NCBI GenBank assembly: GCA_036338695.1
Contig: JAYZBQ010000031.1
Location: forward strand, 1 to 13,122
Direction: 5' to 3'
Source of the DNA: Myxococcota bacterium
GTDB taxonomy: Bacteria; Myxococcota; UBA4151
DNA length: 13,122 nucleotides
Shown: positions 6,802-6,887 of the stretch, one piece after another
Layout: each line of letters opens with the position of its first letter
How positions within the stretch are numbered: position 1 is the stretch's first letter
Program-made: the position numbers and the translations under genes
Notes under the pieces: model-generated
What the model was told of the DNA's origin: nothing
The model's input: only the letters and a program-made list of their open reading frames with translations
The model's database searches: none

Positions 6802-6887
6802 TGGTGCCGAAGGGGGGACTCGAACCCCCACGGGTATTCCCCACTAGATCCTTAATCTAGCGCGTCTACCAATTCCGCCACCTCGGC
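6802..6887 (-). tRNA. tRNA-Leu, anticodon AAG (type II, long variable arm, CCA encoded)
   Basis: Minus strand reads GCCGAGG TG GCG GAATTGGTAGA CGC G CTAGA TTAAGGA TCTAG TGGGGAATACCCGT GGGGG TTCGAGT CCCCC CTTCGGC A CCA. All stems pair. It has the A73 discriminator, a Leu-type D-loop and variable arm, and G37. The 7-nt anticodon loop TT-AAG-GA puts the anticodon at plus-strand 6851-6853 (ctt). Confidence 0.95.

Follow-up and report, generated by a model that had tools for sequence, protein, structure and literature searches.

The secG-linked leucine tRNA gene of the window analysed here, the whole stretch of 13,122 nucleotides of Myxococcota DNA, carries the anticodon AAG, and comparison with related genomes supports the replacement in place of a GAG gene by this AAG gene in the genus concerned. 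The best explanation of the comparative data is that the gene supplies the housekeeping leucine tRNA for CUU and CUC in the genus. Probably this tRNA works with inosine at position 34. The accompanying change appears to lie mainly on the side of the tRNA, in A38 and two stem pairs of the anticodon arm, a point left unremarked in an earlier sequence-only reading of the same DNA.

The gene and its flanks are listed in Table 1. ARAGORN called tRNA-Leu(aag), and the Rfam model RF00005 matched with 56.5 bits (gathering score 29, E = 3.2e-10) and zero non-canonical pairs marked. The cloverleaf, long variable arm, A73, CCA and NAG anticodon of a class II tRNA-Leu were all present. All 23 cloverleaf pairs hold in nine of nine distinct aligned tRNAs, 15 of them with compensatory changes. 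The anticodon arm with A34 and the otherwise intact gene, both described in the sequence-only reading, were confirmed in this way. The minimum free energy fold was not a cloverleaf and was not used as evidence; such folds are usual for unmodified tRNAs. The proposed terminator was also recovered as a hairpin with a T run, and a hairpin stands at the same place 3' of the tRNA in the aligned loci of relatives. The proposed promoter fared less evenly, as a sigma-70 consensus scan upstream of the tRNA called none, but TTGAC-N17-TAGA was invariant in six of six aligned genomes of two genera while the spacer diverged, so that a promoter belonging to the tRNA itself is likely. The gene order is gap-pgk-tpiA-secG-tRNA, with the ORFs at 7401-9418 and 9355-10359 (minus strand) belonging to the gap-pgk-tpiA-secG run and the tRNA downstream of it. 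Glycolysis was given as the top recoded pathway in PMC13249217.

Table 1. Positions of the leucine tRNA gene, its parts and its flanking elements in the window
Feature	Position	Strand	Remarks
tRNA-Leu(AAG) gene	6802..6887	(-)	86 nt, long variable arm, A73, CCA encoded
Anticodon A34-A35-G36	6851..6853	(-)	A34 at 6853 (T on the plus strand), the predicted inosine site
Anticodon loop U32-U33-A34-A35-G36-G37-A38 (UUAAGGA)	6849..6855	(-)	fits the S. pyogenes TadA motif YUAMGRA
Anticodon arm CTAGA-TTAAGGA-TCTAG	6844..6860	(-)	pairs 30-40 and 31-39: C-G and C-G in the sister genus, here G-C and A-U
Candidate sigma-70 promoter TTGACC-17 nt-TAGACC	6899..6927	(-)	conserved in two genera; presumptive function
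Intrinsic terminator-like hairpin and T run	6765..6802	(-)	11 pairs; hairpin itself 6802-6775
secG	6965..7390	(-)	TIGR00810 62.9 bits, cut-off 30.85; upstream marker of the leuU-type locus

Replacement of the GAG gene was assessed in genomes of the window's genus (G000, which holds the window, to G003) and of its sister genus (G004 and G005). G000 (3.36 Mb, 93.6% complete, 63.9% GC) gave 44 tRNA calls with ARAGORN, in which the leucine set consisted of AAG, CAG, TAG, TAA and CAA with no GAG; a relaxed ARAGORN run produced noise and was left out. A BLAST search of G000 with the GAG gene of the sister genus gave a full-length match only at the window locus, and a pattern search found no Leu(GAG) in G000-G003 (59-94% complete), the one candidate in G001 being not a tRNA. 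Leu(UAG) was kept in G000 and G001. AAG was found behind secG in four of four genus genomes, whose TpiA and SecG are about 80-89% identical to those of the window. The gene is identical to that of the window in G001 and G003, and in G002 it has the same anticodon arm with a compensatory change in the T stem and an extra T in the D loop. The gene behind secG is Leu(GAG) in both sister-genus genomes, and it shares its D arm, T arm and promoter-like motif with the AAG gene. In more distant relatives a leucine tRNA was present at 17 of 30 secG loci, and all 17 were GAG. Among 401 genomes sampled from the phylum, 355 fitted a strict GAG/AAG pattern (a tally that includes G183), and an AAG-only pattern gave 13 matches, namely three from the window's genus and ten loose matches that were rejected as not being tRNAs; no Leu(AAG) was found in the 398 phylum genomes sampled outside the genus. 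Since the sister genus and the sampled phylum have GAG and the genus has AAG, the switch maps to the stem of the genus. The in-place conversion suggested in the sequence-only reading was thus borne out, with AAG at the orthologous locus across the clade and GAG at that locus in the sister genus.

The same reading had raised the question of other ANN tRNAs. In G000 the only further A34 tRNA called by ARAGORN was Arg(ACG), and a loose pattern found none in G001-G005 (19 of 30 loci scanned, five matches being without a locus). Apart from this, G000 has a tRNA-Arg(TCG) (C65:9627-9703) that differs from tRNA-Arg(ACG) (C48:250225-250301) at the wobble base only, a likeness that points to a recent duplication of Arg(ACG) with a change of A34 to T. 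The TCG gene is preceded by a TTGACA of its own and also has a terminator-like hairpin. An Arg(TCG) with the ACG-type body was not found in G001, G002, G004 and G005; the Arg(TCG) genes that are common in the phylum have other bodies.

The claimed need for a CUC reader is real. In 2,372 ORFs of G000, taken from our own gene calls with the first 20 codons dropped, CUC made up 38% of the leucine codons and was the fifth commonest codon (35,249 CUC vs 8,649 CUU), and the genes of the ribosomal operons had 97 CUC vs 34 CUU. A genome-wide shift of leucine codons towards CUU/CUC is described in PMC13249217 as a consequence of the Lactobacillales type of editing, though it does not strictly define that type. 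No clear signal of codon recoding relative to the sister genus was seen, the ratio (CUU+CUC)/Leu being 0.47 and 0.41 in the AAG genomes vs 0.44 and 0.43 in the GAG genomes (three of these four genomes were represented by samples of 89-166 kb). Two candidate signals, a CUU excess relative to Val (+0.16 and +0.26 vs -0.05 and +0.06 logits) and one for the ribosomal genes (log2OR of 0.53 and 0.91, against 0.16 and 0.41), were rejected because the shifts of Gly and Arg are at least as large.

In the proposed course of events, the tRNA would be transcribed from its own promoter and charged with leucine by LeuRS, A34 would be deaminated to inosine by the single TadA of the cell, and the inosine-bearing tRNA would read CUC and CUU. 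We regard this sequence of steps, predicted from sequence comparison, as probable. Reading of CUA is not required of the tRNA, as Leu(UAG) is kept. Because the loop of the organism's own Arg(ACG) has A37 as in E. coli, the enzyme would have to accept both C35 with A37 and A35 with G37. In S. pyogenes, Leu(AAG) was reported to be fully edited by TadA with the editing motif YUAMGRA. E. coli TadA was reported not to edit the same tRNA (10.1101/2023.09.19.555891), which counts against the proposal, as does the report that two of four genomic A34 tRNAs of O. oeni are unedited (PMC11066159). Metatranscriptome runs X18-X20 contained 5-8% of the window's words, and the listed contigs over the tRNA were tRNAs of other organisms.

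Rather unlikely, in our judgement, is that A34 stays mostly unmodified and that CUC is read by A34-C wobble together with superwobbling of Leu(UAG), a state that might be tolerable in a slow-growing marine cell. In E. coli, ANN tRNAs without the modification were reported to function in place of native ones (bioRxiv 10.64898/2026.05.15.725136), Leu(UAG) is kept in G000 and G001, the TadA carries no AAG signature, and an unedited AAG in an orthogonal tRNA in E. coli was reported to read CUC at about 13%, with CUU over CUC at 87:13 (PMC11066159). However, the codon that such a tRNA reads poorly is about four times as common as CUU in G000, also in the ribosomal genes counted above, three attempts at G34A in E. 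coli leuU were reported to have failed (bioRxiv 10.64898/2026.05.15.725136), and the natural Leu(AAG) is edited in O. oeni, S. pyogenes and S. mutans according to the reports cited below. No CmoA over the cut-off was found in G000, and Leu(UAG) is therefore probably without cmo5U, although an unmodified Leu(UAG) could still superwobble. The loop itself has shifted to the TadA motif, and its 32-38 pair is of a kind that disfavoured superwobbling in the sole tRNA for which PMC10853795 gives a test, tRNA-Gly, in which U32 with A38 was harmful. By analogy, the U32-A38 state would argue against reading by an unmodified A.

For the reading by inosine, the remodelled arm is the most telling feature. 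Relative to the sister gene, whose loop is UUGAGGU, six positions of the arm differ, namely the two pairs 30-40 and 31-39, G34A and U38A. A lone G34A in a loop of the sister type leaves U38 and therefore gives no match to YUAMGRA. The same combination recurs elsewhere. A GTDB scan gave at least 120 Leu(AAG) genes, and among the matches listed A38 was present in 108 of 120 and A31-U39 in 93 of 120. In the phylum that holds Polyangiales and Lujinxingiaceae, sampled around a genome picked for carrying AAG and counted by us, the pattern matched 120 of 151 genomes, 29 with AAG and 91 with GAG; A38 was found in 29 of 29 AAG genomes vs none of the 91 with GAG, and A31-U39 in all 29, one of which has a decayed second copy. 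Among the matches listed, A38 was absent from all 150 GAG arms of the window's phylum and from all 244 GAG arms of myxobacterial type. These counts include kin and hence are non-independent; a tree of TadA places the AAG carriers in several separate groups, a placement that rests on one gene with modest support. Among the 120 Leu(AAG) genes listed, 12 keep G or T at position 38 (e.g. L120, L133, L145, L148 and L164), which could reflect a recent point change, a lack of editing or an error in the sequence. Biochemical work points to the same position, since E. coli TadA was reported to be blocked by changes at 32, 37 or 38 (PMC11066159) and the C32-A38 pair to contact and bond to TadA (PMC11802342). 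We infer that the change to A38 serves recognition by TadA; because the 32-38 pair was also reported to tune ribosome binding (PMC10853795), A38 has an explanation outside TadA too.

The enzyme, by comparison, looks vertically inherited and little changed, as judged from its sequence. The single tadA of G000 (C48:249656-250129) lies directly after tRNA-Arg(ACG), and its product has the HAE and PCxxC motifs intact and scored 162.7 with NF008113 (cut-off 150). The locus (L001, C48:248189-251626) has tRNA-Ser(GCT) and tRNA-Arg(ACG) before tadA and Ser(GGA), Ser(CGA) and a dnaX-like ORF after it, and many relatives have a comparable group of tRNA genes around tadA. TadA was found in three of the four genus genomes, the fourth being G003 (59% complete). 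Of 30 other AAG genomes, 28 had a match at E<=1e-12, three of these matches being weak, and for the neighbouring phylum the count was 15 of 15 AAG genomes. The genus TadAs are 85-86% identical to one another and 67-69% identical to those of the sister genus, and the two genera appear as sisters in the tree (support 0.99) with stems of similar length.

Residues of TadA were compared in an alignment of 83 proteins, 41 from AAG genomes and 42 from genomes with GAG or without AAG found, which does not include L238 and L260 (motif not extracted) or the matches L256 and L261-L264, these being partial or weak. No column diagnostic of AAG vs GAG was found among them. The genus TadA has Glu (three of three) at the site of S. 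aureus G22 and E. coli R26, where the sister genus has Gly (two of two), and the backbone of S. aureus TadA G22 was reported to contact C35 (PMC10586758). Glu at this position-35 pocket is not required, because the AAG TadAs of the neighbouring phylum have Gly in 15 of 15. A VESLY/VDSLY motif common with S. pyogenes TadA was rejected as a signature, being present in GAG-bearing relatives too. Loss of an Arg before the WRL motif (Arg in none of 41 AAG TadAs vs 24 of 42 others) weakened to none of 15 vs three of 15 when the mixed phylum was taken by itself, and this residue is T or S in the B. subtilis-like and S. aureus structures. The other two deaminase matches look like dCMP deaminase and RibD and were rejected as TadA paralogs. 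For the TadA of relaxed specificity proposed in the sequence-only reading, the comparison gave no diagnostic residue, and neither a paralog of TadA nor a long branch turned up.

A separate question is the origin of the tRNA core, and here we consider it quite unlikely that recombination brought in the core from a marine verrucomicrobium resembling Roseibacillus, with retention of the native acceptor stem, promoter and terminator. Such an import would be compatible with editing. It would account for the match of window 6811-6882 to a Roseibacillus tRNA-Leu(AAG), 98.6% over 73 nt with one indel, when the next closest core among the 120 AAG matches listed is six edits off and that of the sister genus 11-12; furthermore, 13 of 16 metagenome matches to the core were of the Roseibacillus type. 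Large viral contigs carry Leu(AAG) as well: eight IMG/VR contigs of 165-619 kb, viral by database label (L312, L313, L316, L317, L319, L320, L321 and L324), have a full tRNA-Leu(AAG) in tRNA clusters, with an additional Pro(AGG) call on L313. According to the Raval preprint, such ANN tRNAs are absent from bacteriophages. The shared sequence is less specific than it seems, however, since the D arm, the T arm and CTAGA-YTAAGGA-TCTAG are the commonest AAG forms, which leaves U32 and the variable arm as the informative parts; of these, U32 is the ancestral state of GAG loops in the phylum, and the variable arm has the same length as in G005. An identical core lies under a different acceptor strand in 13 of the 120 AAG cores listed, close kin included. 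The other leucine tRNAs differ by 13-14 edits between the two genera vs 14-15 for the window tRNA, so that convergence suffices to explain the core. Within the Roseibacillus family (G426), the Roseibacillus form of the core or a near variant was found in four of 67 matched genomes.

An assembly error, a strain polymorphism or a pseudogene has a negligible probability and is refuted by the conservation of AAG across the genus genomes, three JGI contigs and Logan contigs of several studies, with all stems paired and compensatory changes among them, even if the genus genomes all appear to be metagenome bins (incomplete, 59-94%, in many contigs) and the support comes from assembled contigs, not raw reads. 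The anticodon at 6853 is not an assembly error. The three JGI contigs (L295, L301 and L306, one of them 98% identical to the window) carry the gene adjoining secG and are three of the 16 JGI contigs that matched the tRNA core. Logan contig X7 record 26 spans 6700-7145 with three differences, at 6968, 7014 and 7073, and none at 6853. X1 record 1 (6500-6883) and X10 record 5 (6834-7113) have no differences, with fewer than 31 letters on one side of 6853, and X5 record 11 covers the site without a difference but with a short overhang. Per-record counts were used here since the site-by-site table of Logan differences is incomplete between 6850 and 6892, and the best-covered run may be the source sample of the window. 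The 12 Logan runs with half or more of the window's words are labelled marine or seawater metagenome, one being unlabelled. The plus-strand T at 6853, which the sequence-only reading had singled out for checking, is therefore supported by independent contigs and all four genus genomes. Of the outcomes it had named beforehand as refuting, neither C at 6853, nor GAG throughout the close relatives, nor a separate Leu(GAG) beside an unedited tRNA was found.

Two further ORFs of the window were noted. That at 2076-4181 (minus strand) encodes a secreted protein of 701 amino acids with Ig/PKD-like domains and a C-terminal GCS...RRRRR tail, which we take to resemble a myxosortase sorting signal; the myxosortase-type C-terminal match was below the cut-off, though in keeping with Myxococcota. 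A small ORF of up to 111 amino acids at 10406-10741 (minus strand), upstream of gap, had no Pfam or NCBIfam match.

Leu(AAG) proved to be much more widespread than the sequence-only reading had held. It occurs across many phyla, and the phylum of Polyangiales and Lujinxingiaceae has it in 29 of the 120 genomes matched. According to PMC13249217, the Leu(AAG) genes in databases come almost exclusively from Bacilli, with Mycoplasma and Prochlorococcus as further cases. In the genomes surveyed here Leu(AAG) was also found in Akkermansiaceae, Clostridia, Polyangiales, Lujinxingiaceae and others, with the same convergent arm. The Roseibacillus family (locus L171) had Leu(AAG) in all 67 matched genomes of 81 and GAG in none, and a literature search for verrucomicrobial tRNALeu AAG with inosine returned nothing. 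Akkermansia is culturable. A report of Leu(AAG) in myxobacteria was not found either; the Rafels-Ybern 2018/2019 surveys and the supplements of PMC13249217 and the preprint may list such lineages, and AAG does not occur in PMC13092985, the one paper in which Myxococcota, tRNA, anticodon and inosine all come up.

Taken together, these data allow a tentative generalization, which we hold to be possible but short of probable: leucine decoding by inosine may recur in bacteria, GC-rich ones included, through remodelling of the arm (A31-U39, A34, A38) to suit a nearly unchanged TadA. If so, the TadA of the sister genus would already edit the window tRNA, and bacterial Leu(IAG) would be a common convergent state and not a quirk of lactic acid bacteria. 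How a strictly specific TadA gains a second tRNA is a question posed in the S. pyogenes paper (10.1101/2023.09.19.555891), and whether leucine inosine decoding reaches beyond Lactobacillales is asked in PMC13249217. The two sister genera form a tight natural pair for both questions, with the same locus, AAG vs GAG, and TadAs that are 67-69% identical. Because the genus genome is GC-rich and CUC-heavy, the swap is separable here from AT richness. The organisms of the genus appear to be known from metagenome bins alone.

Among known systems, editing of Leu(AAG) to IAG has been reported for O. oeni, for S. pyogenes (10.1101/2023.09.19.555891 = PMC11472039) and for S. mutans and S. pneumoniae (PMC13249217); Leu(IAG) is demonstrated in the first three of these species. 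The case described here resembles that of the Lactobacillales in that AAG replaces GAG, Leu(UAG) is kept and TadA is single, and in that the loop fits YUAMGRA above a stem with G30-C40 and A31-U39; the GTDB scan found the same UUAAGGA loop in Pseudolactococcus, Furfurilactobacillus and Lacticaseibacillus. It differs in its independent origin, restricted to one genus, and in its genome, which unlike those of the AT-rich Lactobacillales is 64% GC and dominated by CUC, and in which no clear recoding signal was found. The genus TadA, unlike that of the Lactobacillales, has only a short basic tail (KKKKPR), and editing, reported there, is here a prediction from sequence. With the bacterial Arg(ACG/ICG)-TadA pair it shares the enzyme family, a loop with A34, G36 and A38, and the adjacency of tadA to tRNA-Arg(ACG), whereas A35 and G37 stand in place of C35 and A37 and position 32 is U. 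In most other carriers Leu(AAG) is family-wide or wider, whereas the switch in the window falls between two sister genera. The swap is thus no new mechanism; it is an independent further case of Leu(AAG) with a clean control in the sister genus.
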